The notes: generated by a model from the sequence alone, not told the origin. Shown: positions 795 through 64,000, counted from the first letter of the stretch. The stretch is DNA of 64,000 nucleotides from Candidatus Latescibacterota bacterium (GCA_965205485.1 OZ242180.1:923016-987015), one strand, 5' to 3'. Program-made: numbers and translations.

Positions 795-2117
795 TCAAAC
801 GAGATCGCCAGTCTTGAAATACCTGTTCACTTTGTAACGGAAGAGGACTTGGGACAGGAGGATCAGACTCGCAAGTGCCCCAAACTCAAAGTGATCGGGT
901 ATTCGTGGAGCCGCTTTGAGCGAGTACCAACACAATATTGTAATGCCTATAAGGAGACCGAAAGTGATCACATACCCCCTGACACTCGGAGAAAGCAGAG
1001 GGCCAGATCGCAGGCGAAGCCACAAGAAGAAGGGAGTCAATATAGACATCAGGGATACAGGACGGATAAAGTCGTAACCTGCGAATTGTTCCATCAGGAC
1101 GTCCCTGAGCAGAAAGGCAAGTATCAGGGTACCAAAAAAGACGACGCTATATAGGAGCCCACTCCAATAGATCAGTCTTGAGAATTGCATCCGTGAGATG
1201 GGATAGACCCAACCCTTCTGGAGGAATAGACATTCATCCAGGCAATAGATCAAAGCGCAAGTCGCGGGAACAACGGTTACGATTATGTTTAGTACGCGCT
1301 GGAAGGCTACGGAGTTCTGTTGCAAGGCTTTACCGGGCACGTCCGTCAGGACAAACATGCACGCTGACGCGCCAAGAACGGCTATGGCCGGGATGAAGGG
1401 CGCTCTGGCCGGCCATCCTATTCGTTTGAAGCCAAAGTTTTCGTACTCGCCGGCACGAATCCAGTCAAACAGTCCCGTGAACGGCCCCGTATGTTGCCAT
1501 TGACGACGGGATTCACCCTTCAAGCTCTGCGCGTGCGTCACTGGGCCAAGTGCGTTTGCTCTGGCAACATTGACGTCAAAGAAACGATGAAGGCACAGCG
1601 ACGCGCCAGTCAATGCCAGGAGGACGCACAGAACGGGATGAACTGCGTAAACTTCGACGATGCGATCGACCGTATACATCGCGGTGAACAACAGGATCCA
1701 AATGAGAAAACCAAGACCATATCGACGGATGTCCCTGAACAGTGTGGGCCAAACGGGATTCATTCCCAAAATCAGCCCCACACTGTACCAGAGAAGTACG
1801 GATGAGAAGATGGTGTGCCAGGGGGCAATACCACCAGCGGATGTGTAAATCCACGTTTGGAAAAACGCCGTGACAACACCGGCAAGGAGCAGCGAAAAGA
1901 AGAGTCGCCGACGCAGGTTTGGCAAAGTCCATGAAAACAGCGTATTCCGGAGTTCTTGTACGATTCTCCCAAGCAATACGCCGCAAATTACCGGCGACAA
2001 CAATACAAGAAAGTTGTCATCTAATCCAATCTGGACTAAAAAGTACGCGACTATAACCACAGACATCGCGATGTGCAATGGACGCAACAGCAATCCGAAT
2101 AATGCATGGATGCCCAT
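795..2117 (-). CDS. polytopic membrane protein, probable permease subunit of the YtrA-type ABC export system (paralogue 1)
   Basis: 440 aa and strongly hydrophobic. Shares the termini MGI(H/Y)AL...FGDLV and the motif DWIRAGEYEN(F/Y)G with the adjacent paralogue. Last gene of the gntR-ABC operon. Confidence 0.6.
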   Translation of the reverse strand: MGIHALFGLLLRPLHIAMSVVIVAYFLVQIGLDDNFLVLLSPVICGVLLGRIVQELRNTLFSWTLPNLRRRLFFSLLLAGVVTAFFQTWIYTSAGGIAPWHTIFSSVLLWYSVGLILGMNPVWPTLFRDIRRYGLGFLIWILLFTAMYTVDRIVEVYAVHPVLCVLLALTGASLCLHRFFDVNVARANALGPVTHAQSLKGESRRQWQHTGPFTGLFDWIRAGEYENFGFKRIGWPARAPFIPAIAVLGASACMFVLTDVPGKALQQNSVAFQRVLNIIVTVVPATCALIYCLDECLFLQKGWVYPISRMQFSRLIYWSGLLYSVVFFGTLILAFLLRDVLMEQFAGYDFIRPVSLMSILTPFFLWLRLRSGPLLSPSVRGYVITFGLLIGITILCWYSLKAAPRIPDHFEFGALASLILLSQVLFRYKVNRYFKTGDLV

Positions 2118-2153
2118 GAGACGATCACCTTAAGAGCAAGGCTGATATGCGGA

Positions 2154-4354: not shown

Positions 4355-4355
4355 A

Positions 4356-4795: not shown

Positions 4796-4853
4796 TGGCA
4801 GTGTGAATGTCAAACATATTTCTTTAAGAAACCCCAAAACCGAGGAGCGTACA

Positions 4854-5966
4854 ATGAAGATGACGTCGATGGACCTGTGGACCGTGGGGGTGCCGAGTCT
4901 TCCGGGGCGCGTGAACAGCCCGGAATGGGTCCCGGATGTCGGATGGGACGTGGTGCCCAAGCATATCCTACGGATCAACACGGATACCGAGCATTACGGG
5001 CTTGGAGAGTCCGGCCGCGGCGTGCCCATAGAGGACGTGCGCGCGGGGGCGGCCGTGGTATTGGGACGGGATCCCGAGGCGGTGACGCTGCAGAATATCT
5101 ACGAGCCTCGAACCGACGGTACGGAGACGATGCTGACCGTTGGAACGGGTCCCGCGTATCACGCGCTCGAGATGGCGGTCTTCGACCTGGTGGGCCGTGC
5201 GCGCGGGATTCCCGTACATGCGCTGATGGGCGGCGCGGTGCGCGACCGGGTGCGCGCGGACTACTGGATGGGGTCCCAGACGCCCGAAGACGGAAAGCGG
5301 ACCGTCGCGCGGGCGCTCGAGCACGGCTTCAAGGGCATCAAGATCAAGTGCAAGATCGAGGAGCCGATGGTGGAACGGCTGCGGGCGATCCGGGACGTGG
5401 CGGGTCCGGATTTCAAGGTCACGGTGGACCCGAACGAGCGGTTTCGCACGGCGGCGCAGACGATCGAACTCGCCCGCGAACTCGAGGTCCTGGGCAACGT
5501 GGAAGTATTTGAAGACCCGATTCCCAAATCGGATCTGGAGGGCTACGTTAAAATATACGAGGCCACCGATATCCCTATCGCAATGCACCTCGGGAGCGGC
5601 GATGGGGTGCTCCGTGCGGTGAAGGCCGGCGTGGTGGACTGCGTGAACCTGGGCGGGAGCATGGTGGGCTTTGCGAAGAGCGCCGCCGTCGCGGAGGCGG
5701 CCGGGCTGCGCTGCTGGCACGGTTCTGGCGTCGACCTGGGAATTATGGAGGCTTCGTTCGTGCACGCGATATCTGTTGTGCCGAACTGCACGATGGCGTC
5801 GGACATCGTTGGAAGCTGGGTGAGGGAGCACAGCCTGATCCGCGAGTCGAGAGAATTCGCCGACGGATTCACGCCGGTCCCCATGGCGCCGGGGCTGGGA
5901 TGCGAGCTGGATGTGTCGGCGGTGGAACGGTACAGCCGCGCCTTCGAGTCCGTTCAGGCGCCCTAG
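4854..5966 (+). CDS. enolase-superfamily enzyme, mandelate racemase/muconate lactonizing enzyme family (probable sugar-acid dehydratase)
   Basis: Shows the KIKCKIEEP...RLRAIRDVAGPDFKVTVDPNERF pattern typical of the MR/MLE barrel domain. ATG at 4854 has a GAGGAG Shine-Dalgarno 6 nt upstream. Confidence 0.75.
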   Translation: MKMTSMDLWTVGVPSLPGRVNSPEWVPDVGWDVVPKHILRINTDTEHYGLGESGRGVPIEDVRAGAAVVLGRDPEAVTLQNIYEPRTDGTETMLTVGTGPAYHALEMAVFDLVGRARGIPVHALMGGAVRDRVRADYWMGSQTPEDGKRTVARALEHGFKGIKIKCKIEEPMVERLRAIRDVAGPDFKVTVDPNERFRTAAQTIELARELEVLGNVEVFEDPIPKSDLEGYVKIYEATDIPIAMHLGSGDGVLRAVKAGVVDCVNLGGSMVGFAKSAAVAEAAGLRCWHGSGVDLGIMEASFVHAISVVPNCTMASDIVGSWVREHSLIRESREFADGFTPVPMAPGLGCELDVSAVERYSRAFESVQAP

Positions 5967-6032: not shown

Positions 6033-8144
6033 ATGATCGCATTGATCCTGAATTGCCTGCTGTCGTTGACGACACCGGCGCTGGCCGCGTCTGACATCCC
6101 CGCGAAGGTGGACTCCCTGATTCAGGTATCCGCTGACACCTCCCTTGGGCTGGACGGACGCAGGGACATCCTGAAGGAGGCGGCGAAGCTCGACCGGACC
6201 GGAAAGGCCCTGCACGCGCTGGCGCGATTGAGGCTGGAAAAAGGCACCACGTATTCGCGCCAGCAGGCGAGGTCCCTGCTGACGCGGGCGATGGAACGGG
6301 AACCCGAGAATGGGGACTATGTCGCGACCTTCGCGGAGCTGCTCTGGCGCACCGGGCCCAGGTCCGGCTCATACAAGAGAGCACGGGAGGCCATCTCGCT
6401 CGACCCGAAGAATGTCCGCGCGTACTACTGGGCGGGACGGTTCGTGGTCTGGTCGTGGGAAATGACGTTCTTCACCCGGGAGGACGAAAGTGACGCCATG
6501 CGCGTGGCCGGGGACGGTGACGTGACGACAGGGCGCACGTTCGCGCAGCGCGGTTACGCGGACATGGACGTGGACGTGGGGATCGACTATTTGAGCCGCG
6601 CCCTGTGGCTGGACGCGGACCACTGGCCGTCCCGCGTGCATCTCGGGCTGGCATACTATATGGCGCGGAAGCCTGACGATCTGATTTCCCTCTTTCAGGT
6701 CGATATCGAACGCCATCCGGGCCGTGCGGACGCCTACTTTTTCATGGGACTCGGCTATCAGGCAAAGGGACACCCCGAAGCCGCGTACCGCGCCTACGTG
6801 GACGGCCTGGCGCGTCTTTCCGACCGGCAACGCCGCTTCATGCAATCGGTCTTCCTGATGCGTGACAAGAAATCGTGGAAGAACGAGGAACCCCCTCCGG
6901 ACGTGGAGGCGATCCGGAAATTCTGGTTCGGGAAGGACCCGTTGTATCTGAGCAAAATCAACGAGCGGATGCTGGAGCAGTGCAGGCGCGTGGCGTTTGC
7001 GAATCTGCGTTTTGGCGACCCCATCAACGGGTACGCCGGATGGGAGACCGACCGGGGACAGGCCTATATCCGATACGGCGACCCTGTGGCGCGGCACATG
7101 ACGCCCGCGGACATCGATATGGGCCTGACGAAAACCCTTGAGGAAGAACAGCGGATGAGGAGGGGTCCGTCCGGCGGAATTTTCGAATTCCACCCTCGCA
7201 AGGATACATGGACGTACGACGGGTTCGAAGTTTCATTCCTGAATACGAATTCCTGGGACTCCTGGCGGTTCGGCGAGTCGAAGCTGGGGGGGCAGACACT
7301 GAGCTTCAGCGAACTGGTGAAGTCGGTACCGGATTACTACCGCTATCCCTATCAGTACAGCGTGCCGTATCAGGTCGCGCAGTTCCGGCGTGAAGAGGGA
7401 AAGACGAGCGTGGAAGTGTACTATGCGCTGTCCGGTGATCAGGTCACGCACGAAGAGGTCGGTCCAGGGGTCCGGGAGGTGGACGTAGTACAGGCGCTGT
7501 TCCTGTTCGACACGGCCTGGGATACGCTCCGGCGGGAGGTCGGCCGCGTGCGGCGGATGCCCTGGCTGCACTACGTCTCGACCAAACGGGGATACCTGAT
7601 TGCGAGCGAGCAGTTGACGCTTGCGCCCGGGAATTATTACCTGGCGGGGGAGGCGGAGGACCAGCCGAGCAAGAAGGTTGGGACGTTCAGGGAACCGTTG
7701 GAGGTGAGGCGGTTCAACCCCGATTCGCTGGAGATCAGCAGCCTGCTGATGGCGCGCCGGATCGTGGAACGCGATGAATGGCCGGTGGAACGCGGCAGGT
7801 ACATCGTGCTGCCCAACCCATTGCATGAGTGCTCGCGCGATGGAAGCGCGTGGTTTTATTTCGAGGTGTACAACCTGGCGCGAGACACTTTCGGCGCCAC
7901 GCATTACAGGATCGGCTATCAGACGCAGGTGCTTCCGGAGAGGCGGCGGCTGGAGGACCCGGAGCCTGAATGGACGACGGCGGTGTCCTACACGTACCGG
8001 GGCGTCCGGGACTGGGAACCCCGGTATCTGCGGGTGGACATGGACGGTACGTCGCCGGGTCTGCGCACGTTCCGGGTGGTCGTCGAGGACTTGCTGGCCG
8101 GCGCCGAGACCGAATCCACAACACGTTTTCGCGTAAGGTGGTAA
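6033..8144 (+). CDS. GWxTD domain-containing secreted protein (paralogue 1)
   Basis: Signal peptide MIALILNCLLSLTTPALAAS. Core motif NGYAGWETDRGQAYIRYGDP. N-terminal TPR-like region. Confidence 0.75.
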   Translation: MIALILNCLLSLTTPALAASDIPAKVDSLIQVSADTSLGLDGRRDILKEAAKLDRTGKALHALARLRLEKGTTYSRQQARSLLTRAMEREPENGDYVATFAELLWRTGPRSGSYKRAREAISLDPKNVRAYYWAGRFVVWSWEMTFFTREDESDAMRVAGDGDVTTGRTFAQRGYADMDVDVGIDYLSRALWLDADHWPSRVHLGLAYYMARKPDDLISLFQVDIERHPGRADAYFFMGLGYQAKGHPEAAYRAYVDGLARLSDRQRRFMQSVFLMRDKKSWKNEEPPPDVEAIRKFWFGKDPLYLSKINERMLEQCRRVAFANLRFGDPINGYAGWETDRGQAYIRYGDPVARHMTPADIDMGLTKTLEEEQRMRRGPSGGIFEFHPRKDTWTYDGFEVSFLNTNSWDSWRFGESKLGGQTLSFSELVKSVPDYYRYPYQYSVPYQVAQFRREEGKTSVEVYYALSGDQVTHEEVGPGVREVDVVQALFLFDTAWDTLRREVGRVRRMPWLHYVSTKRGYLIASEQLTLAPGNYYLAGEAEDQPSKKVGTFREPLEVRRFNPDSLEISSLLMARRIVERDEWPVERGRYIVLPNPLHECSRDGSAWFYFEVYNLARDTFGATHYRIGYQTQVLPERRRLEDPEPEWTTAVSYTYRGVRDWEPRYLRVDMDGTSPGLRTFRVVVEDLLAGAETESTTRFRVRW

Positions 8145-8328
8145 CCGGCGAAGAACCCGCCCTTCTGTCGAAGACACAACGTCAATGCCAGGGGAACCAT
8201 TCTCTCCTCCGGCGGGTCTACAATATGACACGGAATCCGCTGAGGACTTCCCGGAACCGGCTGCCGCTCGCGCTGTCGTCCGGCGCTTTGACGGTTGACT
8301 CTCGTCGCCCGATCAATTGGAAATCCTG

Positions 8329-10362
8329 ATGTTGAGACTCGCCCTGCTGATCACGATCATTCTCTGCGTCTCCAGCCCGACGGCGGCCGCAAAGCGGGAC
8401 GCGTACAAGGTGGCGGCCCTGTTGGCCTCCGCGGCGGATACCTCACTGTCGCACATGAAGCGAGTGTCGCTGATGGAGCGGGCGGCCCGGTATGATCCAT
8501 CGGGAAGGGCGATGCACGCGCTGGCCAGGCACTATCTGAGCCGTGGCACGGTGTTGTCCAGACGGTTTGCGAGGCAGTGGGTGCACAGGGCGATGAAGCG
8601 CGAACCGGAGAACGCCGCATACGTCAAGACGTACGCGGAGATCTACTGGCAGGCGGGTTCGCGCGATGAATTCTACGAGCAGATCCGCCGGGCGATCGCG
8701 CTGTCGCCGAATGACGCGGACGCCCTCTATCAGGCCGGAAGATACGCCGCCCGTGAAATGATGTACAATCTCGAACGGGAAACCCTGAAATCGGGCCCGG
8801 AACGGAAGCGAAGGTTTAATTACGGGAATTACGGCGAAGCAATGCGGGAGCAGGCAATCGGCTATCTGAGCCGCGTTCTGGAAGTGGACCCGAAACATCG
8901 TCCCGCACGGATTCTGCTGGGCCAGGTCTACCTCGAGGGCCATATGGCCGTTCGGCTCGTGGAACTGTTCGAGGATTACGCGGAGCGCAACCCGGAAGAC
9001 TGGGATGCGTTTTTTTTCACCGGGCTGGGTTACCAGACACGAGAAGAACTGGACAAGGCATTCGCCGCCTATTCGGAAGGCCTGAAACAGATGTCAGGAT
9101 TGAAACAGCAATTCATCAGGTCGGTGGTGGTTTTGACGGACCGGGAGGCGTTGAGGGACGGGGGCGAACTTCCTGACGAAGAGACCCTGCGCCGGTTCTG
9201 GACAGGCCGGGACCCCTTGTTCCTGACACCGGGAAACGAGCGGATGCTTGAACACTGCAGGCGGGTGGCGTATGCCAATCTGAGGTTTGCCGATCCGGAC
9301 CGCGGCGTCGAAGGCTGGGAGACGGACCGCGGCCAGGTATACATAAGGTATGGACAACCGGGCGCGCGAAACATCTATCTGGACCGGATGAATTACGTGC
9401 TGCTCCGCGAGACGTGGCGCTATCCGGGGTTCAGCATAACGTTCGAACGCCTGGGTGAAAACAACTGGGACGTGCTGCAGGTTTCGATTCGGGGATCGGT
9501 ACGAAGCAAATACAAGGACCTCGTGGAGCGGGTTCCCGAGTACTACAGCGACCCGTACTGGCTGAAACGGTACGACGCGCCCTTCGAGATCGCGAGGTTT
9601 CGCGGCGAGGACGGCAAGACCCGGGTGGAGCTGTACTATGCGCTTTACGGCGAACACGTCGCGCACCGGGAGGTCAGTTCGGGATTGCAGGCGGTGGATC
9701 TCAGGCAGGGCCTGTTCCTGTTTGACGAAGGATGGCAGGAAGTCAGGAAGACCATTTCACCCATTCATCGAATGCCGTGGATCGAAGGCAATGCCGTGCG
9801 GGATGGATACCTTTTCTGGGGCGAGCGCCTTTCCATGGATCCGGGGACGTACCACCTGGCGGTCGAAACGGAGGACCTGAACAAACACAGCCTGGGGACC
9901 CTTCGCGATTCGTTGCAGATCAGGCGGTACGGCCGGGACAGGCTGGCAATCAGCGACCTGCTCCTGGCTCAGCGGGTGGTCGAACAGGACGATCGACCGT
10001 TCGGCCGGGACAGGTTTATGGTGTTGCCCAACCCGTTGAAGCAATGCCAGCGGGACGCCAGCATGTCGTTCTACTTCGAGGTCTACAATCTGAAGCGGGA
10101 CGAGTTCGGCGCCACCCGTTACCGGATCACTTACCAGACCCGCCTGCTTCCGGAAAAGTGGAAGGAAGAGGACGTGGTCATTCCCGAGTGGACAACGGCC
10201 GTGACCAACTCGTACAGAGAGACGAGGGATTGGCAGCCGCATTATCTCACCCTGGATATGGAGGGGTCCACGCCGGGACCATGGGCATTCAGGGTGATCG
10301 TGGAGGACCGGCAGGCGGAAAGCAGGGCGACGAGTTCGGCGGTGTTCCGCGTGATGCCGTGA
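8329..10362 (+). CDS. GWxTD domain-containing secreted protein (paralogue 2)
   Basis: Signal peptide MLRLALLITIILCVSSPTAAA. Core motif GVEGWETDRGQVYIRYGQP. Colinear similarity to 6033-8144 along the whole length. An in-frame TTG at 8317 is an alternative start. Confidence 0.75.
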   Translation: MLRLALLITIILCVSSPTAAAKRDAYKVAALLASAADTSLSHMKRVSLMERAARYDPSGRAMHALARHYLSRGTVLSRRFARQWVHRAMKREPENAAYVKTYAEIYWQAGSRDEFYEQIRRAIALSPNDADALYQAGRYAAREMMYNLERETLKSGPERKRRFNYGNYGEAMREQAIGYLSRVLEVDPKHRPARILLGQVYLEGHMAVRLVELFEDYAERNPEDWDAFFFTGLGYQTREELDKAFAAYSEGLKQMSGLKQQFIRSVVVLTDREALRDGGELPDEETLRRFWTGRDPLFLTPGNERMLEHCRRVAYANLRFADPDRGVEGWETDRGQVYIRYGQPGARNIYLDRMNYVLLRETWRYPGFSITFERLGENNWDVLQVSIRGSVRSKYKDLVERVPEYYSDPYWLKRYDAPFEIARFRGEDGKTRVELYYALYGEHVAHREVSSGLQAVDLRQGLFLFDEGWQEVRKTISPIHRMPWIEGNAVRDGYLFWGERLSMDPGTYHLAVETEDLNKHSLGTLRDSLQIRRYGRDRLAISDLLLAQRVVEQDDRPFGRDRFMVLPNPLKQCQRDASMSFYFEVYNLKRDEFGATRYRITYQTRLLPEKWKEEDVVIPEWTTAVTNSYRETRDWQPHYLTLDMEGSTPGPWAFRVIVEDRQAESRATSSAVFRVMP

Positions 10363-10452: not shown

Positions 10453-12432
10453 TCAGTAATTATGCACGCCGTGCCCCTGGCCCGGAAACCAGATCGCGTC
10501 AACGAGGAAGGAGAGTGTGATGGCCAGCACATAGCCGGTCAGGAGTCCCAGAAAGGCCGGCTGCCATTTTCTGTAGAGATTGACGCCGCCAACCTTGAGC
10601 AGGATGGCCTTGATCGCCCAGACGACGAAGATCGAAAAGAACGTGAGTTGGGTGTTCCATGAGAAGGCAATGGGAAATGCGATGGGGTGAAACGGCCACC
10701 ATGGCAGCCGGTAGTGCAGAAAGGTCAGCAGTGACATCGCGGCGGCGCCCACGCAGAACACGGCCAGACGCTCCCAACTGGTATCGAAGGGGCTTCTCAT
10801 CTGGGTAACGGTGAGGTCGTACGCGAAGCGTCCGGCGCTGGAGAAGGGCCAGGCGTTGAAATTGAAAGCGCCGGTCCGATAGCCCAGGAAGATGGTGAGG
10901 GCGAAGTCGGCCGCGAGGCCCACGACCACGACCAGTGCCAGGGCAGGCACAAGCCGCCGCCGGTTCCGGCGGATGAGGTCCGCGAGTCGGACCACGTGCA
11001 TGAAGGGCGCCATAAAGGTGCCCTTGCCCTGGCAGACGAGGCTGTACGTGAGGCTGATGCCGGACATGCTCGAGGGCGAAAGCGCACTGGTGCCGATCGT
11101 GTACAGGGCGGCGTACTGTTCGGTCAATGTAGTACGCATATAGGCCAGACCCGTCTCGCAGACGATTCGGGCGATGGATAGGTAGTTGACGATCAGGGCG
11201 GGCACGAGAAGCGCGACGAGTTTCCCCTGCATGCCCAGTTGGGAAAAGAAGGCGCAGACAAAGCTGAGGCTGCCGATGAGTCCGAACACGGCAAACCGGT
11301 ACGAGAGCAGTTCACCGGCGTCGTCGGCGTCCCCTTTCCCGAATGCCCTGGCGAAGACGGCCCTGATGTGGGTGCGGGCGGTCCAGAGATTCCACAGCAC
11401 CAGCACGGTCAGCGCGCCGAATCCCTGCCAGGCCGTGACCTCGGTTTCGGCGGAAAAGTTGAGCGGCTTGCGCGGGATCACGTATCCGATGCGGTTGATG
11501 ATGCCGTTTTCGAACCAGAAAAACAGCACGAAGAAGACCCAGATAGAGAACAGGATATTCAGGTTGGCGAAGTACGCGAATCCCGCTGTCAGAAAGTTGA
11601 TGCGGGTGTTGACCCGAGGAAAGCCTTTTGCAAAGACGACCCACTTGCCCTGCAAGGGGATCTTGGGCACGACCGGCCAGAAATAGTTGAGGATATTCCA
11701 GGAAATGGCGCCGAATCCCACGCCGAAACCGCCCCAGAAAAGCCCCCCACGAAGGGCATCCGGAAGAAAACCGCCACGGCTCCCGCGCGTGAGGGTAGCC
11801 CCCACGGATGCAAGCGGAAAGACCAGGCGCTCGTTCCGCACCCACTGCTTGCGGAGGATTACCGAGATACAGAACAGGAGCGTGCATAGGGCCAACAGGA
11901 AGAAGATCCAACTGATCAAAGGAGCAATCCAGGCGTGATAAGGCGCCTGCTGCCCCTCGGGCAGCCCCTCGTAGAACCATTTCATCGCGTGATTCTCGTT
12001 CGAGGGCACAGCCCACTCGGGAATATTTGGATGGAGATAGTTGGCCCACTGATTCTCAGGCGTGGCGAAATAGTAGACGCCGGAGAGAATGCCCAGAAGA
12101 AAGCCCGTGATGCCCGACGTCGGTACCACGGCGCCGACGAACCCCATCGCCAGGATGGTGAGCAGTTCGGACGACTGCAGGGCGCTGTGCGGACGGAGGC
12201 GGCGGACGAAGCCGTTGACGATGACCAGCACGAGGAAGGCGGCGAAGAGGGCGAGGGGGAAAAAGGAGAGCTGCATCCGCGAGGCGTGGATGACGTATTC
12301 GGTGGTTGAAATCCAGAAATTCACGACGAGCACGAGCAGCAGGCCGATGCCGACGGCGCGAAGCGTCACCGCGTCGGTCTTCAGTGCCGTTTGGGATTCG
12401 GACTCCGCTCGAGTTGCGGAACTCTGCGCCAT
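10453..12432 (-). CDS. large polytopic membrane protein of unknown family (M1; paralogue of 27922-29892 and 30012-31997)
   Basis: 659 aa with about 12 or more hydrophobic segments. Conserved block ATPENQW...P(S)N...FEGLP and a C-terminal FPGQGHGVH shared with the two paralogues. Confidence 0.7.
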   Translation of the reverse strand: MAQSSATRAESESQTALKTDAVTLRAVGIGLLLVLVVNFWISTTEYVIHASRMQLSFFPLALFAAFLVLVIVNGFVRRLRPHSALQSSELLTILAMGFVGAVVPTSGITGFLLGILSGVYYFATPENQWANYLHPNIPEWAVPSNENHAMKWFYEGLPEGQQAPYHAWIAPLISWIFFLLALCTLLFCISVILRKQWVRNERLVFPLASVGATLTRGSRGGFLPDALRGGLFWGGFGVGFGAISWNILNYFWPVVPKIPLQGKWVVFAKGFPRVNTRINFLTAGFAYFANLNILFSIWVFFVLFFWFENGIINRIGYVIPRKPLNFSAETEVTAWQGFGALTVLVLWNLWTARTHIRAVFARAFGKGDADDAGELLSYRFAVFGLIGSLSFVCAFFSQLGMQGKLVALLVPALIVNYLSIARIVCETGLAYMRTTLTEQYAALYTIGTSALSPSSMSGISLTYSLVCQGKGTFMAPFMHVVRLADLIRRNRRRLVPALALVVVVGLAADFALTIFLGYRTGAFNFNAWPFSSAGRFAYDLTVTQMRSPFDTSWERLAVFCVGAAAMSLLTFLHYRLPWWPFHPIAFPIAFSWNTQLTFFSIFVVWAIKAILLKVGGVNLYRKWQPAFLGLLTGYVLAITLSFLVDAIWFPGQGHGVHNY

Positions 12433-12462
12433 CTTTCCCTTTCAGTGGATCCCACCGCAAGA

Positions 12463-12487
12463 GGACGGGCGCCCACAAGGGACGCCC
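12463..12487. repeat. 25-bp exact repeat CGGGCGCCCACAAGGGACGCCCCTAC (second copy at 56527-56551)
   Basis: Identical string at two intergenic sites. Contains a GGGCG/CGCCC stem-forming inverted repeat. Confidence 0.5.
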
Positions 12488-12604
12488 CTACGATGCGAGG
12501 TAGTGGGAATTTTCACCAATACATAGAATCGAGAGCATATATTCTGCTCCCGCCTTTACCCTGTTTATCCTGTCCAACCCTGTTTGTCTCGTCTTCTAAA
12601 TTGC

Positions 12605-13573
12605 CTAAGTATCCTCCGGTTCCTTCAGCTTCCAGCCCGGATTCGTGCCGCCCTGCATGTCTGGCGGAAGGGGTTCCGCCAGATTGCCGTAGAGGCCGGG
12701 GCGGCGCGCGCGCAGATAGCGGTACCCGGAGGAGACCGGTATCTTATCGGGCGTGAGCAACCCCACCACGACGTCGTCCTCCAGCGCCTCCGACTCGACC
12801 AGGACTTCGCCGAACGGGTCCAGGATCATCGCATTGCCATTCTTGACGGTATCGTGATCCACGCCTATGGGATTCGTATAAACGGCGTAGACGCCGTTCT
12901 CATAGGCGCGCGCCGGCAGCCAGCGCATGAGCCAGCCACGACCCTTCGGTCCGTTAAATTCCTGCCGGAGCGATACCGGGTCGCGATGACGGTTCTCCCA
13001 GAGGGCGCGGTCGATGACGCCCCGGCCGGGCATGGCGGAGGGCAACCCGCAGGTAACGTGAGGCATGAAGATGATTTCCGCGCCCATCATCGCCGTCAGG
13101 CGCACGTTTTCAGGCAGGTTGTTGTCGTAGCAGATCAGGATGCCCAACCGGCAGCCGCGGAGGTCGAAGACGGTGAACGCGTCGCCGGAGTCGATGAACT
13201 TGCTGATGAAGGCGTGCAGCTTGCGATGCTTCGCGACGTAGCCCTCCGGACCCACGGCGACATAGGTGTTGTAGAGTGCATCGCGTTCCGCTTCCACAAG
13301 GCCGGCCAGTACGGCGACGTTGTATTCCCTTGCGATGTCGATAAGGCGATTCGTGGATGGACCGCCCGGAACGGGCTCGGCCAGTTCGGCGATCAGGGAA
13401 CGTGGGAGGGTCTGCAGAAAAGTGTAGCCCGGAATGCAGCATTCGTGGAAGGAGACGATTTCGGCGCCCGCGTCGACGGCCCGCCTCGTAAGGGCGTCGA
13501 TGCGGGAGAGGTTGTAGGGTTTGTCGGCATCCCGCGCTTCGAACTGTGCGGCGCCGACTCTGATGTCGCGCAT
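12605..13573 (-). CDS. carbon-nitrogen hydrolase (nitrilase superfamily)
   Basis: Catalytic triad context E (SFHECC), K (KHRKLH), C (ILICYD). 322 aa. Confidence 0.8.
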   Translation of the reverse strand: MRDIRVGAAQFEARDADKPYNLSRIDALTRRAVDAGAEIVSFHECCIPGYTFLQTLPRSLIAELAEPVPGGPSTNRLIDIAREYNVAVLAGLVEAERDALYNTYVAVGPEGYVAKHRKLHAFISKFIDSGDAFTVFDLRGCRLGILICYDNNLPENVRLTAMMGAEIIFMPHVTCGLPSAMPGRGVIDRALWENRHRDPVSLRQEFNGPKGRGWLMRWLPARAYENGVYAVYTNPIGVDHDTVKNGNAMILDPFGEVLVESEALEDDVVVGLLTPDKIPVSSGYRYLRARRPGLYGNLAEPLPPDMQGGTNPGWKLKEPEDT

Positions 13574-13664
13574 GAAATTCCGATCTTGCCGTCCGCGATC
13601 GGGCTGAAGGCAATCTAAAGGACTGGACTTCTCGGGCGTCTCCGCGGGAATTGGGGAAAGGACG

Positions 13665-14606
13665 TCAGGCCGTTCCGTCCACCAGCCCCTTCATGTAGCC
13701 GATGGCGTAGAGCCTTCCCATCAGGGTGTAGCCCGGCGGGTCGTTGGCTTCGCCGGAAAGCACCGGGACGTGGTCCGGCCGTATGGGTCCGGTGAAACCG
13801 ATGTCCCGGTACGCCCGGATGCACTCGGCCATGTCCGTGTCGCCCTCGTCATGGAAGGTCTCCTCGAAGCTGGGTACGGTTCCTCTCACGTCGCGGAAGT
13901 GGGAGAAATGGATCCTGTCCCCGAACCGGCGGATGGCTGCCGGCACGTCCGCGCCCATTGCTGCGAAGTTGCCCTGGCAGAAGGTAATGCCGTTGTATTC
14001 GCTGGGAACCATGTCGATGACGCGCTGGAACGCGTCTACGCTGGTGATGATGCGGCCGATTCCCCGGACGGGCGAGAGGGGCGGATCGTCAGGGTGCAGC
14101 GCCTGCCTTACGCCGGCCTCTTCGGCCACGGGAATGACACGCTCGAGAAAGTATTCCAGGGATTCCCAGAGCAGTGCTTCGCTCACTTCCCCATATTTCG
14201 TAGGGGGCGCGTCCTGCATCAGCGTGTCATCGTAACTGCTCACAAACGCATCTCCCCGGCCGCGCGTTGTGAAAGAGGTACGCATCCAGTTGAATACCGC
14301 CATCCAGTTCCAGCACATGATCCCGATACCGGCCGCGCCCAGGTTGCGGATGGTCTGGCAGTACGCGTCGATATCCGCGTCACGGCCATCCAGACCCAGC
14401 GTGATGCGGTTCGAGATCAGTACGGACTCCACCACGGACCACGTGAGACCCGCGTCCGCGATGCGTTGCTTGTGATGTACGATGGCGTCAAAGTCCCAGA
14501 TCGGCCCGCCGTTGGGAAGTGTCGTTACAAGGTCGGTCACGCCGATCTGGCGGGCGAGGGCCATCCGTTCTTCGTCGAGGGGCGACAGGACCAGTGCGAA
14601 TCTCAT
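13665..14606 (-). CDS. uxuA: mannonate dehydratase
   Basis: Blocks shared with E. coli UxuA: GLTWSVVESV, VIPVAEEAGVRQALHPDDPP, IRPDH, PPGYTLMGRL. Confidence 0.8.
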   Translation of the reverse strand: MRFALVLSPLDEERMALARQIGVTDLVTTLPNGGPIWDFDAIVHHKQRIADAGLTWSVVESVLISNRITLGLDGRDADIDAYCQTIRNLGAAGIGIMCWNWMAVFNWMRTSFTTRGRGDAFVSSYDDTLMQDAPPTKYGEVSEALLWESLEYFLERVIPVAEEAGVRQALHPDDPPLSPVRGIGRIITSVDAFQRVIDMVPSEYNGITFCQGNFAAMGADVPAAIRRFGDRIHFSHFRDVRGTVPSFEETFHDEGDTDMAECIRAYRDIGFTGPIRPDHVPVLSGEANDPPGYTLMGRLYAIGYMKGLVDGTA

Positions 14607-27903: not shown

Positions 27904-27921
27904 TTACGCTTCTCCTGTCTT

Positions 27922-34384: not shown

Positions 34385-34415
34385 TTCCTTCTCCAAATGA
34401 TGTCCGCGGCGCGAC

Positions 34416-51400: not shown

Positions 51401-51766
51401 CCGCATCGCCAATGTCCTCCGCGCTGCTCACGCCCGCCACCACAACGTGCCCCACTTCTGCCAACGAATGGGGCATTGTGCGCACCACCCGCCCGCCGGG
51501 ACCCGGCCAGACGCGGTCGGTCAGGTCGTAAGCCCGGAAGTAGAGGGTTCGCAGGAACGCGCTGTCCATCATGTTCCCCAGCGCGATCACGTGCCGGCCG
51601 TCTGCATCCAGCTTATCGTCCGGCAGCACGTCCACGCGCCCGAAAGGGTCTCCTCGAGGACCGCCTTCAGACTGCCGGCCGCATCCTGGTAGGAATCCCC
51701 CGCCGGCGCCGAAATACAGACGCCTTGCCCAAGATCCGTTTCATGAATCGCAGGTGAGAATGCCAT
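48453..51766 (-). pseudogene. giant paralogue 5, with three single-base frameshifts (about 51638-51648, 51369-51376 and 48520-48535)
   Basis: The true N-terminus MAFSPAIHETDLGQGVCISAP...EETLSG lies at 51766 downward. It continues in the 87-aa ORF (VDVLPDDKLDADGRHVIALGNMM...) and then in the long ORF 48029-51310. The C-terminal tail (GWPSGWPEGGLLVGRKDGALELFR) is in the ORF ending at 48453. Each junction lies at a short homopolymer. Confidence 0.65.
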
Positions 51767-52795: not shown

Positions 52796-53575
52796 TTACG
52801 CCCAGGCCTCGCATCCGGCGAATTGCATGTGTTTTCCTTCGACGTATTTCGGCCGCGGCACATAGTGGTTTCCGACCTCGGGAACCACCTCCCCGCAGCA
52901 CAGGATGGACCGCTGTGTTTTCCGTGTCACGCGAGTGCTGGTGGGAATGTAGCGAAGGGTGAGTCCCACGCGCCAGTGGTCCGATGTATTGTAGTTGGAG
53001 CCGTGGATGATATTGGGGTGGTGGATGGAAATATCCCCCGCCTGGAGTTCCACGTCCACGGCGTCGGCTTCATCGATCTGATCGGGGCGCATTCCGATGC
53101 CGAGTACGTACTTATCGGGATCCAGCTCGACCATCTCCGAGCGTTTGAGTAGACGCCGGGTGTGTGACCCCGGCAAGACCCGCATGCACCCGTTTTCCAC
53201 GGTGGAGTCCGTGCCGGCGACCCACAGCGTCGTCACCTCCATTGGCTCCAGCGGCCAGTAGGATCCGTCCTGGTGCCAGCGCACGGCCTGTCCGGTCTCG
53301 GGCTTCTTGGCGATATAGTGCGCGCCGAACATCGCCAGGTTGGGTCCGATGAACTGTGCCGCGATATCCAGCAGCCGGTCGTCACAGACCACGCGGTGCA
53401 TGAACGGATCGTCGACAAGCAGGCTATGGTGCAATTTCTCGGGCCGCGTGTCGGGATGCCTTTCGACCAGCCACTGCACGTGCTCGACCGTTTCCGCCGC
53501 CAAACCAGCGTCGATGGCCCCGCGAGCGATGCAGAAGCCCGTCTCGTCATATTCCTTCCGCAAAGTCGATTCCAT
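52796..53575 (-). CDS. phytanoyl-CoA dioxygenase (PhyH) family Fe(II)/2-oxoglutarate oxygenase
   Basis: 259 aa. HxD iron motif in WHQDGSYW and a distal His in IHHPNIIHGS. Confidence 0.75.
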   Translation of the reverse strand: MESTLRKEYDETGFCIARGAIDAGLAAETVEHVQWLVERHPDTRPEKLHHSLLVDDPFMHRVVCDDRLLDIAAQFIGPNLAMFGAHYIAKKPETGQAVRWHQDGSYWPLEPMEVTTLWVAGTDSTVENGCMRVLPGSHTRRLLKRSEMVELDPDKYVLGIGMRPDQIDEADAVDVELQAGDISIHHPNIIHGSNYNTSDHWRVGLTLRYIPTSTRVTRKTQRSILCCGEVVPEVGNHYVPRPKYVEGKHMQFAGCEAWA

Positions 53576-55220: not shown

Positions 55221-55241
55221 CATACAAAAGGAGCATGAATT

Positions 55242-56919: not shown

Positions 56920-56993
56920 ATCCCATTTGTTTTAAACAGAGTATTCATCCGATCCCGATTGGCAGATCAGGTACAGGGAGGGAGTAAAAAAGC

Positions 56994-60717: not shown

Positions 60718-60875
60718 GGTCGGGAAAGTTACACATGGCTACACGGATCGGCGCCTCGCGAATTCAACGCACGCCGATTTATCTTGTACTGTGGCGGGCG
60801 CCGTGTTTTTGACTTACATTTCAAAATGGAAGCCTGTCCGGACTCCGGTTGCCGCGCCACCGGCCAGATGACTGA

Positions 60876-61925: not shown

Positions 61926-61959
61926 AGCAATCCAATCGAGCTTGTTCACATCCTGCCAA

Positions 61960-64000
61960 CTATCTGACGGCGGGCATGAAATCCTGTGAGGCCTGGAACT
62001 CCCCCGCGCCGGGGATGGCTTTGGGTTGAACGGTATATTTCCCCCTGGGAACCACGAAAAAAGCGGTGTTCCTGCGCGCGTCGACCCGGGCGTTGTACCG
62101 GACAATACCGTCCCTGTTGCGGATACTCCAGTCGCCCGGCGCCAGGCCGGTCAGCAATAACTGACAGCTTCCATCCCCACCGACCCCCACCTGCAGCGTC
62201 TGCTCCAGCGGCTTGCCGGTCCGGTTCAAGACCACGACCCGGTCCGCCAGCGTGACAACGAAGGCTTCCGGGAGTTCAACGAGGTCGACCGGCAGCTGCT
62301 CCTCCTGTTCGTCACACATCGTCATCACCGTCAGAAACACATCGTTGCTCCGCTCTTCCACGGGTGAGAACATCACGCGATGGCCGTTCGCTTCAGGACG
62401 GTCCGGTTTTGGCGGCGTAAAGTACTGTCCGAACACGCTATTGGCGTCATTTCCGCTCAGGATCTGCGTATCCCGCTCATCCGCCCCCGGTCGCAGCATT
62501 CGCAGCACGACCTTGCCGCTCCCGTCAGCGTCGCTGTTTCTCAGGATAACGCCGTCGTCCGTCGTTTCGGGCGGGTTGAGGGTGTTGACCTGCCAGTATT
62601 TCCTGAACTCCGGTCTGGCCGTGGTCATATTGTCCAGGACGATCAGCGCCGCGGCAGTCTGCTCGTTGTCGAGGTTCAGGAAGCAGAAGGTCCGGACGTA
62701 GTCCTCGATCTTCTCGCTGTAGGCCGACGTCAGATTGACCGAGAAATAGCTGTAGAACGGCCGCTGAGGGGACGGGCCAAAGCTGGTCGAGACGACGCCA
62801 CCGTTGGCGAACGTCGGATCAGAAAGCGCCTGGTCCGGTGTGGTCGGGCAGGATTGAATGAAACGCACGCCCCCGTCATTGACGGTATTCCGAATGAACT
62901 GCTCTTCAGGATCGACCGCCAGCATCATGCTGTGCGAAATCGAACGTTTACAGAAGTTGAAGTCGTAGGGCGTTCCGTAGAAATGGTACTGCCCCAGGTC
63001 GGCCGCCTGCAGCCCGCGGTAGTAGATCTGGAAGCTGCCCGCGTCGGCGTGCTGGTGATTGCCGAAGTGATACCCGCCGCCCTTCATCTCCACGACCACG
63101 TCGGACGCGCCGGGGCCCATGTTCCATCCGGTCCGGGCGACCATCGAACCGAGGATCGGGCCGAAATCGATGGTGAGCGGCAATGAAGAGAAATCCTCGG
63201 CAGCCTTCAAGTCCGGGTCGTTCAGCAGCAGCACCATGATCGGTTCGGAGGGAAGCCCGCCCTGCCGCTCGAAGTCGTGCTTGATGACCGGATCGTTGCT
63301 GTAGGCGTAGCTGAGCAGTGCTGTAGCGCCGAGACTTGCCGGCCGTCCGTCAGAAAACCCGTCGCCGTCACGTAGCGTCTCTCCGTTCGGCATGCGCATG
63401 TAGAGCCAGAACTTGCAGACATCCGCGATGTTGTCGTCGAAGACCCGCTCGCCGGTCATACGGTTAAACAGCCAGGCCGCGTGCATATCCCATCCGAACC
63501 GGTACGGGCCGTAGCTGACGCCCTGGTTGTGGCGCGGGGACCGGTATTCGAACCGGCGCATCGGAACCAGTTCTTCCAGCATGCGGTAGGCGCAATATCG
63601 ATACGGTACCGGGTCTTCGTCGTAGATGGCGATGGCCATGCAGAGCAGATCGCGGTTGACCTGCGCCTCGTTGCCATGGCCGTTGACGATGATCTGCTTG
63701 AACGGCGGCCAGCCGATTTCCATATCGTCGGCGAGGCGCATCAGGTCGGTGCGAATGCTGTTCCTGTCGCTCGGTGTCATCAACTCGTAGCACCAGTCGT
63801 AAACCAATGCCGCAGAGTAGATGGCCCGGCCGATCTCCCTTGTAATATCAAGCAGATTTCCGAATTCGACCGCGGCGAGATAGTCGCGGATCAGCGCCAC
63901 CGCTTCCCGGCCGGGCGTCTCCTCGCCGTTCATCAGATAAACGAAGGCCCTGGCGACGGCCGCTTTCTCGAGTTTCGGATTGTGGCCGACTTCCGTACCC
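61960..64000 (-). CDS. heparinase II/III-like protein, 5'-truncated at the window end
   Basis: Motif GGGYHFGNHQHADAGSFQIYYRG. The reading frame stays open to nt 64000. Confidence 0.75.
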   Translation of the reverse strand, partial: GTEVGHNPKLEKAAVARAFVYLMNGEETPGREAVALIRDYLAAVEFGNLLDITREIGRAIYSAALVYDWCYELMTPSDRNSIRTDLMRLADDMEIGWPPFKQIIVNGHGNEAQVNRDLLCMAIAIYDEDPVPYRYCAYRMLEELVPMRRFEYRSPRHNQGVSYGPYRFGWDMHAAWLFNRMTGERVFDDNIADVCKFWLYMRMPNGETLRDGDGFSDGRPASLGATALLSYAYSNDPVIKHDFERQGGLPSEPIMVLLLNDPDLKAAEDFSSLPLTIDFGPILGSMVARTGWNMGPGASDVVVEMKGGGYHFGNHQHADAGSFQIYYRGLQAADLGQYHFYGTPYDFNFCKRSISHSMMLAVDPEEQFIRNTVNDGGVRFIQSCPTTPDQALSDPTFANGGVVSTSFGPSPQRPFYSYFSVNLTSAYSEKIEDYVRTFCFLNLDNEQTAAALIVLDNMTTARPEFRKYWQVNTLNPPETTDDGVILRNSDADGSGKVVLRMLRPGADERDTQILSGNDANSVFGQYFTPPKPDRPEANGHRVMFSPVEERSNDVFLTVMTMCDEQEEQLPVDLVELPEAFVVTLADRVVVLNRTGKPLEQTLQVGVGGDGSCQLLLTGLAPGDWSIRNRDGIVRYNARVDARRNTAFFVVPRGKYTVQPKAIPGAGEFQASQDFMPAVR

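Follow-up and report, generated by a model that had tools for sequence, protein, structure and literature searches.

Gene content of the window

The window is the whole stretch of DNA analysed, 64,000 nucleotides on one strand, shown from position 795. It comes from an uncultured bacterium. It is about 95% identical to MAGs labelled Gemmatimonadota or Latescibacterota, and the nearest relatives of its genome are bins from marine sponge metagenomes. The Pfam scan of the window covered 36 long ORFs. Family X is our name for five window paralogs of one unannotated family of about 1100 aa, and the paralogy seen in the window is far above chance, with BLASTP E values between 1e-20 and 0. The features are as follows.

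795-4453, ABC-exporter-like genes, no glycan-related matches
4803..5966, plus strand, enolase-superfamily (MR/MLE) enzyme (Pfam)
6033..10362, plus strand, two paralogous TPR proteins, each with a hydrophobic N-terminus
10453-12432, minus strand, third DUF6785/DUF6784 carrier (Pfam)
12605-13573, minus strand, CN_hydrolase (Pfam)
13665-14606, minus strand, UxuA (NF003027, 266.3 bits, cut-off 191; TIGR00695, 208.2, cut-off 199.55)
16169..19843, minus strand, family X paralog E, 1224 aa, intact, no signal peptide, Tyr variant 'GYCW' at the Tyr-equivalent
20854..23607, minus strand, PL15-like protein (DUF4962 + Hepar_II_III_C, Pfam), hydrophobic N-terminus that is a likely signal peptide
23768..24718, plus strand, MalK-type ABC ATPase (ABC_tran + OB_MalK, Pfam), convergent with the importer genes
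24909..25778, minus strand, MalG-type permease, 289 aa, assigned by reading the translation
25748..26615, minus strand, MalF-type permease, as ORFs of 190 aa and 135 aa with a frameshift near 26100
26637..27950, minus strand, CUT1-type sugar-binding lipoprotein (SBP_bac_1), LAAC lipobox
27922..29892, minus strand, DUF6785+DUF6784 membrane protein, overlaps the SBP gene by 29 nt, fold taken from the modelled paralog
30012..31997, minus strand, DUF6785+DUF6784 membrane protein, the modelled copy, predicted OPT/Yellow-Stripe fold
32030..34438, minus strand, right-handed beta-helix + PKD protein, hydrophobic N-terminus, ortholog matches Pel9A-like_beta_helix
34416..35300, minus strand, PhyH-family Fe(II)/2-oxoglutarate dioxygenase, overlaps the beta-helix gene by 23 nt
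35845..39186, minus strand, family X paralog D, 1113 aa, intact, His variant 'CHGW'
39340..42629, minus strand, family X paralog B, two ORFs, 1-nt deletion at ~40576 (AAA -> AA)
42715..46016, minus strand, family X paralog A, 1-nt deletion at ~43147
48509..51766, minus strand, family X paralog C, frameshifts at ~51641 and ~51376
52796..53575, minus strand, second PhyH-family dioxygenase (Pfam)
53800-61925, sigma/anti-sigma pair, porin-like protein, FMN_bind/ApbE, sterol methyltransferase, no glycan-related matches
61960..64000, minus strand, heparinase II (PL21) homolog by homology to 2fuq (ORF 61960-63933, open to the window end)

The preliminary description read 795-63933 as a single expanded locus for acidic polysaccharides. 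All the genes it listed are present, among them the beta-helix/PKD protein, the nitrilase-family hydrolase and UxuA for uronate catabolism, which scores above the curated NCBIfam cut-offs. The core of that reading holds, with an ABC sugar importer, many lyase-fold proteins and no SusC/SusD, but the span is not one demonstrated unit. There is evidence of glycan processing for about 40 kb of 63 kb, and roughly a third of the window (the stretches 795-4453 and 53800-61925) has no glycan link. The claimed lack of a SusC/SusD pair was borne out. The 36 long ORFs gave zero Pfam matches to a SusC/SusD or TonB-receptor family, and the adjacent SusC TonB-dependent receptor and SusD of a Bacteroidota-type PUL are not found here. 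The "acidic" label rests on the lyase folds, the heparinase II gene and UxuA. The window has no GH88/GH105, KduI/KduD, KdgK/KdgA, UxaC/UxuB or sulfatase, and the SBP looks like proteins that bind neutral oligosaccharides. We agree that the target glycan is not deducible from the sequence.

UxuA, the CN_hydrolase and the third DUF6785/DUF6784 carrier form a same-strand array (10453..14606, minus strand). The UxuA protein is short, at 313 aa, and its match comes in two stretches. A UxuA gene also sits next to three DUF6785 genes in L066. An MR/MLE enzyme was claimed as a sugar-acid dehydratase; the enzyme at 4803-5966 is there, but all of its NCBIfam equivalog scores are far below the cut-offs and do not back that specificity. 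The second TPR protein has a weak match to the GWxTD domain, below the Pfam cut-off. TPR proteins stand beside DUF6785 genes in other loci too.

Three kinds of heparinase-fold protein

Seven genes, making eight ORFs with one gene split by a frameshift, are assigned a heparinase II/III-type fold. This agrees with the earlier count of 7 or 8 heparinase II/III-like proteins, but they are not one homogeneous set. There are three different kinds: one canonical PL21 gene, one PL15-like gene and the five family X paralogs. Judged by sequence, the PL21 gene appears to be the only canonical lyase among them. It aligns to 2fuq over 611 residues (E 2e-101, query 6-616 on 2fuq 97-725) and has a HepII_C domain (Pfam, 38.2 bits against a cut-off of 26.1). 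We take 2fuq chain numbering plus 25 to be the native numbering, which puts His, Glu, Tyr and His where they are expected. The motifs GHgnE, QGvSY..RF and NHQHaDAG align on 2fuq residues, and the equivalents of H202, E205, Y257, R261, N405 and H406 are kept. In heparinase II His202, Tyr257 and His406 are catalytic and Glu205 is the neutraliser (PMC12088678, Table 4). The window gene, whose N-terminus lies beyond the window end, is like Pedobacter heparinus heparinase II (2FUQ) in length of alignment, catalytic residues and HepII_C domain. It differs in that its host is not a Bacteroidota and no sulfatase or GH88 is nearby. We regard 61960-64000 as a putative heparin/heparan-sulfate lyase of PL21.

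The gene at 20854-23607 is a sequence-level relative of Atu3025 (3A0O/3AFL, E 3e-33). A profile built from 9 homologs matches 3a0o in two colinear stretches, toroid and sandwich (E 3.2e-33), followed by PL39 (6.5e-18) and PL35 (1.4e-15). It keeps ANNHRWR, which corresponds to H311/R314 of Atu3025. It does not have the full Atu3025 catalytic set of His311, Tyr365, His531 and Arg314. The Tyr365 equivalent is absent, with W/G in that column (EGRGWL vs EGPHYW). So is the His531 equivalent, where there is a K, with a Q at His533 (EVSKEQGDKNAF vs SLSHSHGDQNAF).

Family X is harder to place by sequence. None of the five window paralogs matches Hepar_II_III_N/C, DUF4962 or Alginate_lyase at E<=1e-3, and the first 740 residues are covered by no Pfam or NCBIfam model. 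A Hepar_II_III_C match was found in 1 of 37 representatives of the wider family (E 5e-4). A domain-only profile searched against the PDB reaches heparinase III at just E 0.006, in two colinear pieces. There is no heparinase Pfam match, and the fold assignment comes from an AlphaFold (AF2) model of P0001, the intact ortholog of paralog A (96% identical), with pLDDT 91.9 and pTM 0.90. The Foldseek matches of this model (4mmi, 3a0o, 5jmd, 6lja, 8khv, 2fut) have E of 2e-15 to 6e-12 over 590-670 columns. The relatives, matched over about 600 columns at E 1e-15 to 1e-12, are heparinase III, Atu3025, exoHep, PL35 GAGases, DS-epimerase and HepII (PL12, PL15, PL35, PL21). The model and these matches thus indicate the toroid plus antiparallel beta-sandwich of PL12/15/17/21/35/39. 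The predicted architecture is an N-terminal alpha/beta domain, an (alpha/alpha) toroid, a beta-sandwich and an FG-GAP propeller, and paralog E has all four. Paralogs B and C also have intact orthologs, P0016 (95% identical) and P0026 (85% identical). Paralog C carries an extra 1-nt deletion at ~48527 relative to L015, which is probably why its ORF continues to 48029.

The nearest comparison is with the PL15 exo-type lyases, the oligo-alginate lyase Atu3025 and Bacteroides exoHep (6LJA). Both groups have a three-part body of small N-terminal domain, (alpha/alpha) toroid and antiparallel beta-sandwich. In both, a toroid helix begins with an Asn/His motif, and the sandwich His lies in an S-H-S-x-x-D-x-N motif. 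From N/H to His, family X has 215 residues and PL15 has 219-220. However, the two are only 12-14% identical, and neither Pfam nor NCBIfam gives family X an assignment. PL15 has a small beta-sheet as its N-terminal domain, where family X has an alpha/beta one. Family X also has the propeller of about 350 aa, and the Tyr position is His in most window copies.

Across 141 divergent representatives R251, N285, H286, D476, K477, R481, H501, D505, R579 and D593 are 96-100% conserved (N285 96%, H286 100%, H501 99%). Conservation of polar residues at this level is an active-site-like pattern, and every key residue is kept in all five window paralogs. hhalign pairs the RQNH of family X (N285-H286) with NNH in the PL15-like protein, a motif that in turn aligns to H311 of Atu3025. 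The family X 'SHSYQDxN' resembles 'SHSHGDQN' around H531 of Atu3025 (residues 530-537). The Asn/His pair and the sandwich His are thus placed by motif and spacing, not by superposition. The spacings fit the catalytic residue sets tabulated for lyases (PMC12088678, Table 4). Position 337 lies +52 from Asn/His, against an expected 53-57. Among the 141 representatives, 68% have Tyr there and 30% have His. Of the window paralogs, the one at 16169-19843 has Tyr and the other four have His. This Tyr-equivalent is placed by spacing and alignment, and another register (H-Q-W vs H-Y-W of Atu3025) would make it Gln. The candidate active site consists of R251, N285, H286, K329, D333, Y/H337, D476, K477, R481, H501, D505, R579 and D593. 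Family X is a candidate lyase or epimerase family.

Public data hold at least 1094 family X clusters at 50% identity, labelled only "PQQ-like propeller" or "hypothetical". The C-terminal propeller is present in 33 of the 37 representatives sampled. In Opitutaceae and other lineages the flanking genes are sulfatase, PhyH, DUF2961, AraC, MR/MLE and sugar-type oxidoreductases. Family X and PhyH genes co-occur in two or three phyla, and homologs of the second window PhyH lie beside family X genes in Opitutaceae and one Phycisphaerales locus. The window clade has no signal peptide and is predicted to be cytoplasmic.

The importer and the DUF6785/DUF6784 carriers

The MalEFGK-type importer with a lipoprotein SBP that had been described is probably a CUT1 set. 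The SBP and MalK were identified by Pfam and MalG by translation, and MalF is present but split in the assembly. Among solved structures, those nearest to the SBP are neutral-sugar binders. On the same strand the order is PhyH, beta-helix, two OPT-like carriers, SBP, MalF and MalG, with gaps of at most 120 nt or overlaps.

The "unknown 660-aa membrane proteins" proposed as transporters are there as three DUF6785+DUF6784 proteins with a predicted OPT/Yellow-Stripe fold. The model of one copy has Foldseek TM-scores of 0.62 and 0.67 to barley HvYS1 (7WSR/7WST), of the OPT/Yellow Stripe-like family (TC 2.A.67). The two are of similar size and share an all-helical membrane architecture, although identity to HvYS1 is just 10-14%. 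The 48 DUF6785/DUF6784 members gave no match to Pfam OPT even at E<=1; all hit DUF6785 and DUF6784 alone. We argue from the model that DUF6785 and DUF6784 together match one transporter fold, that of OPT/Yellow Stripe. The genomic company of DUF6785 is more often sugar-type than peptide-type (SBP, beta-helix enzyme, UxuA, oxidoreductases, sulfatases), and in metagenomes the neighbours are mostly sugar-type oxidoreductases and sulfatases.

A probable glycan utilisation region and its alternatives

We argue that the centre of the window (~16-52 kb, with the UxuA/DUF6785 array at 10-15 kb and the heparinase II gene at 62-64 kb) is probably a glycan utilisation region without SusC/SusD in an uncultured bacterium labelled Gemmatimonadota/Latescibacterota. 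Starting from the folds, motifs, gene order and synteny, we infer enzyme activities, a substrate and a carrier cargo as follows. A uronate-containing polymer would be cut outside the cytoplasm by exported candidates, namely the beta-helix/PKD protein, the PL15-like protein and probably heparinase II. The CUT1 ABC importer (SBP-MalF-MalG-MalK) would take up the fragments, with the OPT-fold DUF6785/DUF6784 carriers as a possible further route. The five family X enzymes would then process the oligosaccharides in the cytoplasm. Their PL15-like active site (Asn-His, Tyr or His, His) could carry out exolytic beta-elimination or C5 proton abstraction. The sugar acids would pass on to UxuA and the enolase-superfamily dehydratase.

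Atu3025 is itself a cytoplasmic enzyme supplied by an ABC importer, and the same logic is proposed here for family X. The alginate system of Sphingomonas sp. A1 uses an SBP and ABC importer in place of SusC/SusD, with final depolymerisation in the cytoplasm. The window locus is like it in having an SBP and a probable ABC importer, no SusC/SusD and a proposed cytoplasmic final step. It differs in its five uncharacterised propeller-fused paralogs, OPT-fold carriers and PhyH dioxygenases, and no unsaturated-uronate pathway is recognisable nearby. Since loci with an ABC importer and lyase folds but no SusC/SusD are already known, our headline reading is an ordinary one.

One can imagine a scenario in which the glycan is remodelled and not consumed. 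Family X proteins, in the cytoplasm or periplasm, would then either epimerise uronyl residues at C5 or act as trimming enzymes. Their substrate would be exopolysaccharide made by the cell itself or a host glycan imported for reuse, with AlgG/AlgL and dermatan-sulfate epimerase as models. Human DS-epimerase 1 does have the highest query-normalised TM-score among the toroid matches (0.38, 708 columns). The lack of a signal peptide in the window clade, the His at the Tyr position in four of five paralogs and the absence of unsaturated-uronate catabolic genes from the window also suit this scenario. However, no glycosyltransferase, Wzx/Wzy, Wza or sugar-nucleotide gene was found among the ORFs scanned. 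The genes accompany an importer-type SBP and no exporter. Distant family X homologs are secreted proteins whose genes have sulfatases and AraC regulators as neighbours, as is usual in catabolic loci. We consider remodelling unlikely. It is about as improbable that the window is a mosaic over-read as a locus, where the OPT-fold carriers, nitrilase and PhyH serve peptides, glycopeptides or small nitrogenous compounds and family X proteins are binding or scaffold proteins. The sole structural relative of DUF6785 belongs to the oligopeptide transporter family and carries metal-phytosiderophore complexes, and one DUF6785 homolog adjoins a gamma-glutamyl transpeptidase (G_glu_transpept) and Peptidase_S15. 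The PL15-like gene has lost catalytic residues, and both stretches without glycan-related matches fit a mosaic. A scaffold role does not sit well with the active-site-like conservation in family X, though, and two carriers are packed between the beta-helix enzyme and the sugar SBP. The mostly sugar-type company of DUF6785 in metagenomes disagrees with a peptide role too.

The frameshifts raise the question of whether the locus is decaying. Three family X genes, MalF and probably one sigma factor are frameshifted, and if these shifts are real the pathway would be non-functional here. There are at least five uncompensated 1-nt indels in coding sequence relative to 95%-identical relatives with intact genes. 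The comparison with related genomes proposed in the preliminary description shows synteny with RHO1_bin_28, where the genes are intact. Each indel is the loss of one base from a short run (G4 -> G3, CC -> C, AAA -> AA, GGG -> GG), a pattern that is consistent with long-read or consensus assembly errors too. Amino-acid identity is still 85-96% on both sides of each shift and stop codons have not accumulated. Decay is very unlikely in our view.

With utilisation as the preferred reading, a broader proposal can be put forward tentatively, though we would not yet bet on it. Family X may be an undescribed polysaccharide-lyase/uronyl-epimerase family with a PL15-like body permanently fused to an FG-GAP propeller, spread across Latescibacterota/Gemmatimonadota, Verrucomicrobiota, Planctomycetota and Armatimonadota. 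The sponge-MAG lineage would have a cytoplasmic subfamily with 4-5 copies per locus in which the catalytic Tyr became His. In bacteria, DUF6785/DUF6784 would represent a branch of the OPT fold recruited for importing glycan fragments or sugar acids. PhyH would be a conserved accessory, for example in the oxidative removal of a sugar substituent.

These genes give a handle on "dark" carbohydrate metabolism. Family X is a large unannotated enzyme family with a confident model, a candidate active site and intact orthologs. Two Pfam DUFs, DUF6785 and DUF6784, gain a fold assignment, and the family X-PhyH association recurs. Should these activities be borne out, the capacity of these lineages to degrade uronate glycans would be undercounted in CAZy-based surveys of sponge and aquatic microbiomes.

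Gene content and extent of the locus

The 36 longest ORFs of the window, which has a G+C content of about 61%, were scanned with Pfam, and part of them also with NCBIfam. All genes named in the preliminary description are there. The absence of a SusC/SusD pair also holds, as Pfam gave no SusC, SusD or TonB-receptor match among those 36 ORFs.

Genes of the locus, with strand and source of assignment
4803-5966, +, MR/MLE enzyme (Pfam)
10453-12432, 27922-29892 and 30012-31997, three DUF6785+DUF6784 membrane proteins of 656-661 aa
12605-13573, -, CN_hydrolase (Pfam)
13665-14606, -, UxuA (above both curated NCBIfam cut-offs)
16169-19843, 35845-39186, 39340-42629, 42715-46016 and 48509-51766, family X paralogs
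23768-24718, +, MalK with OB_MalK domain (Pfam)
24909-25778, -, MalG-type permease
25748-26615, -, MalF-type permease, as two ORFs of 190 aa and 135 aa
26637-27950, -, SBP_bac_1 lipoprotein (Pfam)
32030-34438, -, beta-helix and PKD protein (Pfam)

The beta-helix protein has matches in its N-cap alone, to a GH120 xylosidase and a PL9 rhamnogalacturonan lyase, and its ortholog has a precomputed Pel9A-like match. It could be PL9-like or a hydrolase. The stretch at 14700-16100, which separates UxuA from the first family X gene, has a lower G+C (about 0.54; whole window, about 0.61) and carries nothing but short unannotated ORFs.

The observations behind the preliminary description are confirmed, and its interpretation is borne out in part. 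It treated 795-63933 as one polysaccharide locus. Glycan-processing evidence is found in five stretches (4.8-6.0, 10.4-14.6, 16.2-46.0, 48.5-53.6 and 62.0-64.0 kb) and is lacking in four others. At 795-4453 (-) an ABC ATPase lies beside two multi-pass membrane proteins of 440 aa, which are paralogs with 34% identity and have no Pfam or NCBIfam family. The genes of this stretch have no counterpart near family X elsewhere and almost none near DUF6785 genes. The sigma/anti-sigma region is at 53.8-56.5 kb, where the ORF upstream of the anti-sigma gene (53800-54513) looks like a broken sigma factor. At 57.0-60.7 kb (56994-60717, +) a porin-like outer-membrane protein (458 aa, C-terminal aromatic residue, no Pfam match) precedes an FMN_bind protein and then an ApbE flavin transferase, and no link of this group to glycan genes was found. 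The fourth stretch (60.9-61.9 kb) is a sterol C-24 methyltransferase-like gene (60876-61925, +; Sterol_MT_C 80.9 bits; Methyltransf_11), and the window showed no further sterol genes. The closest relatives of the genome are sponge-derived MAGs. Bacterial sterol methyltransferases found in sponge metagenomes are relevant to the debate over the 24-isopropylcholestane biomarker (PMC10070321); that paper names neither Gemmatimonadota nor Latescibacterota.

Heparinase-type proteins and family X

The window had been said to encode 7 or 8 heparinase II/III-like proteins. That fold call stands, but they are not one set. They divide into a canonical heparinase II (HepII), a PL15-like protein and the five family X paralogs. 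The HepII gene (61960-63933, -) aligns across 611 residues with Pedobacter heparinase II (E 2e-101) and keeps equivalents of H202, E205, Y257, R261, N405 and H406, the catalytic set in PMC12088678 Table 4. N-terminal truncation was ruled out; the reading frame is open up to base 64000, so the gene is cut by the window end.

The PL15-like protein (20854-23607, -) gave only weak matches to DUF4962 and Hepar_II_III_C in a single-sequence Pfam scan. It is labelled elsewhere as 'heparinase II/III family protein'; 12 homologs are detectable, all of the same lineage. Their profile finds Atu3025, an oligo-alginate lyase of PL15, at E 3e-33, followed by PL39, PL35, dermatan-sulfate epimerase, exoHep, HepII and PL17. 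The equivalents of H311 and R314 of Atu3025 are kept (ANNHRWR). The Tyr365 column has W/G, the His531 column K and the His533 column Q, so this is a PL15 relative that fails on its catalytic residues. It is probably not a canonical lyase, and its hydrophobic N-terminus suggests that it is exported.

Pfam matches in family X are confined to a C-terminal propeller of the FG-GAP/PQQ/lambda-carrageenase type, and the first ~740 residues have no Pfam, NCBIfam or PDB sequence match. Comparison with the two recognised heparinase genes by BLASTP and single-sequence hhalign (probability ~1%) gave nothing usable. Pfam does not place the sequences of the window paralogs in a heparinase-type family. We modelled P0001, the intact ortholog of 42715-46016 (96% identical), with pLDDT 91.9 and pTM 0.90.

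Domains of the family X model
Residues 1-145, alpha/beta domain
Residues 150-416, helical toroid
Residues 440-730, beta-sandwich
Residues 750-1101, propeller

Foldseek against the PDB returned designed and BamB-type propellers, and also toroid enzymes over ~600 columns at 12-14% identity (E 1e-15 to 1e-11). These were heparinase III (4mmi, 5jmd, 4fnv), Atu3025 (3a0o, 3afl), exoHep (6lja), PL35 GAGases (8khv, 8khw), human dermatan-sulfate epimerase (6hzn), HepII and a PL17 lyase. Alignment A1 comprised 49 family X homologs. A full-length profile searched against the PDB was swamped by propellers, and a domain-only profile (A3) was used instead. Its match to heparinase III (E 0.006) consists of two colinear pieces. 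The Foldseek and profile matches together mean that the heparinase-type fold had been called correctly for family X.

Conservation across 141 aligned family X representatives
251, R 96%
285, N 96%
286, H 100%
329, K 79%, R a further 17%
333, D 87%
337, Y 68%, H 30%
339, W 70%
476, 477 and 481, D, K and R, 96-100%
501, H 99%
505, D 96%
577, 579 and 593, W, R and D, 99-100%

The key residues are all kept in 5/5 window paralogs. In the PL12, PL15, PL17, PL21, PL35 and PL39 sets the Tyr lies 53-57 residues past the Asn/His, and a distance of 184-220 residues leads from the Asn/His to the sandwich His (PMC12088678 Table 4). The family X spacings from N285 are 52 to position 337 and 216 to H501. By hhalign the family X RQNH falls on the NNH of the PL15-like protein; in the profile match to Atu3025 this NNH lies at H311. 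The family X "SHSYQDxN" resembles "SHSHGDQN" around H531 of Atu3025. Spacing and alignment would put a possible Tyr equivalent at 337; an alternative register, also plausible, sets H-Q-W on H-Y-W. Position 337 is Tyr in 16169-19843 (GYCW) and His in the other four window paralogs (G/C-H-x-W). A claim that the family has no catalytic Tyr and an invariant W339 at +54 is withdrawn, because the 141 wider representatives show Y/H at 337.

Atu3025 is cytoplasmic. The window clade of family X has no hydrophobic N-terminal segment and its model is ordered from residue 9, so the enzymes are most likely cytoplasmic in this lineage. Signal peptides are present in distant homologs from Opitutaceae, Pirellulaceae and Armatimonadota.

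Searching 1.84 billion cluster representatives with a domain profile built from the window paralogs only (A4) gave 1094 clusters at E<=1e-3, 494 of them at E<=1e-30. The propeller is present in 33/37 sampled representatives; a few have added CBM-like domains, and one matches Hepar_II_III_C (E 5e-4). A scan of one genome per species gave 63 loci. The hosts are MAGs labelled Gemmatimonadota and Latescibacterota (closed chromosomes of 5.2-5.9 Mb among them), a Lake Baikal Latescibacterota MAG, many Opitutaceae, and Pirellulaceae, Phycisphaerales, Armatimonadota and Kiritimatiellia.

Gene neighbourhoods and the DUF6785/DUF6784 proteins

The minus-strand order is a PhyH dioxygenase (34416-35300), beta-helix/PKD, two DUF6785+DUF6784 genes, SBP, MalF and MalG, in which neighbours overlap or are no more than 120 nt apart. 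The paralogs at 35845-39186, 39340-42629 and 42715-46016 lie upstream of PhyH, followed by an opposite-strand gene and the paralog at 48509-51766. In MAG RHO1_bin_28 (GCA_028877215.1) the order is the same and the genes, of 1104, 1101, 1097 and 1107 aa, are intact. The opposite-strand gene inside the tandem array (46269-48245, +) fuses a Peripla_BP_6/ANF_receptor domain to a Cu/Zn superoxide dismutase domain, and is kept at the same place in four other loci (L003, L006, L015, L016).

Outside the close clade, neighbours found in 5-10 family X loci were recorded. They are two kinds of PhyH dioxygenase, a sulfatase with an SGSH_C domain, DUF2961, AraC regulators, metallo-beta-lactamase, GFO/IDH/MocA, Zn-ADH and MR/MLE. 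Most of these loci are from Opitutaceae, so the association spans two or three lineages rather than many. PhyH Fe(II)/2-oxoglutarate dioxygenases (34416-35300 and 52796-53575, both -) lie beside family X in the sponge-MAG clade and also in Opitutaceae/Phycisphaerales (L031-L048, L061). This suggests a conserved accessory step, which we speculate might be oxidative removal of a substituent.

The three DUF6785+DUF6784 proteins are 40-43% identical pairwise. The model of 30012-31997 (pLDDT 90.7, pTM 0.92) matches one solved fold, the barley iron-phytosiderophore transporter Yellow Stripe 1 of the OPT family (Foldseek E 7e-8, TM 0.62/0.67). The Pfam OPT model is matched by 0/48 DUF6785 family members, and a literature search found no paper that mentions DUF6785. 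At the level of the predicted structure we consider the OPT fold settled.

The neighbours of DUF6785 elsewhere are mixed in kind. Three tandem copies adjoin a UxuA gene in a 7.4-Mb genome; another adjoins a gamma-glutamyl transpeptidase and an S15 peptidase. Genes that recur around DUF6785 in 80 metagenome loci encode sulfatase, Zn-ADH, aldo-keto reductase, GFO/IDH/MocA and SDR enzymes, TPR and PorV-like proteins, and a 1530-aa FtsX/M28 fusion. The ~1530-aa FtsX/Peptidase_M28 fusion adjoins DUF6785 on seven marine metagenome contigs (L092, L098, L099, L106, L122, L124, L136), together with a second membrane protein of 663 aa without a Pfam family. These loci may be a different transport module with the same carrier family. 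The window encodes two paralogous exported TPR proteins (6033-8144 and 8317-10362, +), one of which matches GWxTD weakly, below the threshold. Similar TPR proteins adjoin DUF6785 genes elsewhere (L057, L067, L068, L073, L086), accompanied by PorV-like and CHU_C (type IX secretion) proteins.

How the locus would work

Beside the observed folds, motifs, gene order and synteny, we infer a four-step mechanism. The best reading, and a reasonably probable one, is that the locus degrades and imports a uronate-containing glycan. Exported enzymes would nick the polymer, the candidates being the beta-helix/PKD protein, the PL15-like protein and HepII. Fragments would enter via the CUT1 importer and possibly also the OPT-fold carriers. 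Several family X isoenzymes would then trim fragment ends by beta-elimination or related C5-proton chemistry, and UxuA and the enolase-superfamily enzyme would handle the sugar acids. This reading has weak points. The window has no unsaturated-uronate pathway and no sulfatase, and among solved structures the SBP is closest to binders of neutral oligosaccharides. One can imagine a locus for remodelling with an epimerase role, which we think unlikely, or a mosaic with peptide-type uptake, which is about as improbable.

A decaying locus could hold together with any of these readings, but we consider it quite doubtful. MalF and three family X genes are split by indels. The MalF shift is at ~26100; at the DNA level three MAG loci share 94.5-95% identity with the window, and comparison with ~95%-identical intact relatives was made at the five family X sites.

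Uncompensated 1-nt indels relative to these relatives
~40576, AAA to AA
~43147, CC to C
~48527, GGG to GG
~51376, 1-nt insertion
~51641, G4 to G3

Long homopolymers were ruled out, as the four deletions lie in runs of only 2-4 bases. Identity is at the same level on both sides of each shift, and we think assembly error is likelier than recent pseudogenes. The RHO bins come from a coral-reef demosponge microbiome study that sampled three Rhopaloeides odorabile individuals, and we take RHO in the bin name to stand for that sponge.

Loci of this general kind are already known. What is new is the propeller-fused PL15-like family, its putative His-for-Tyr and most likely cytoplasmic subfamily expanded here, and the assignment of an OPT fold to DUF6785/6784.
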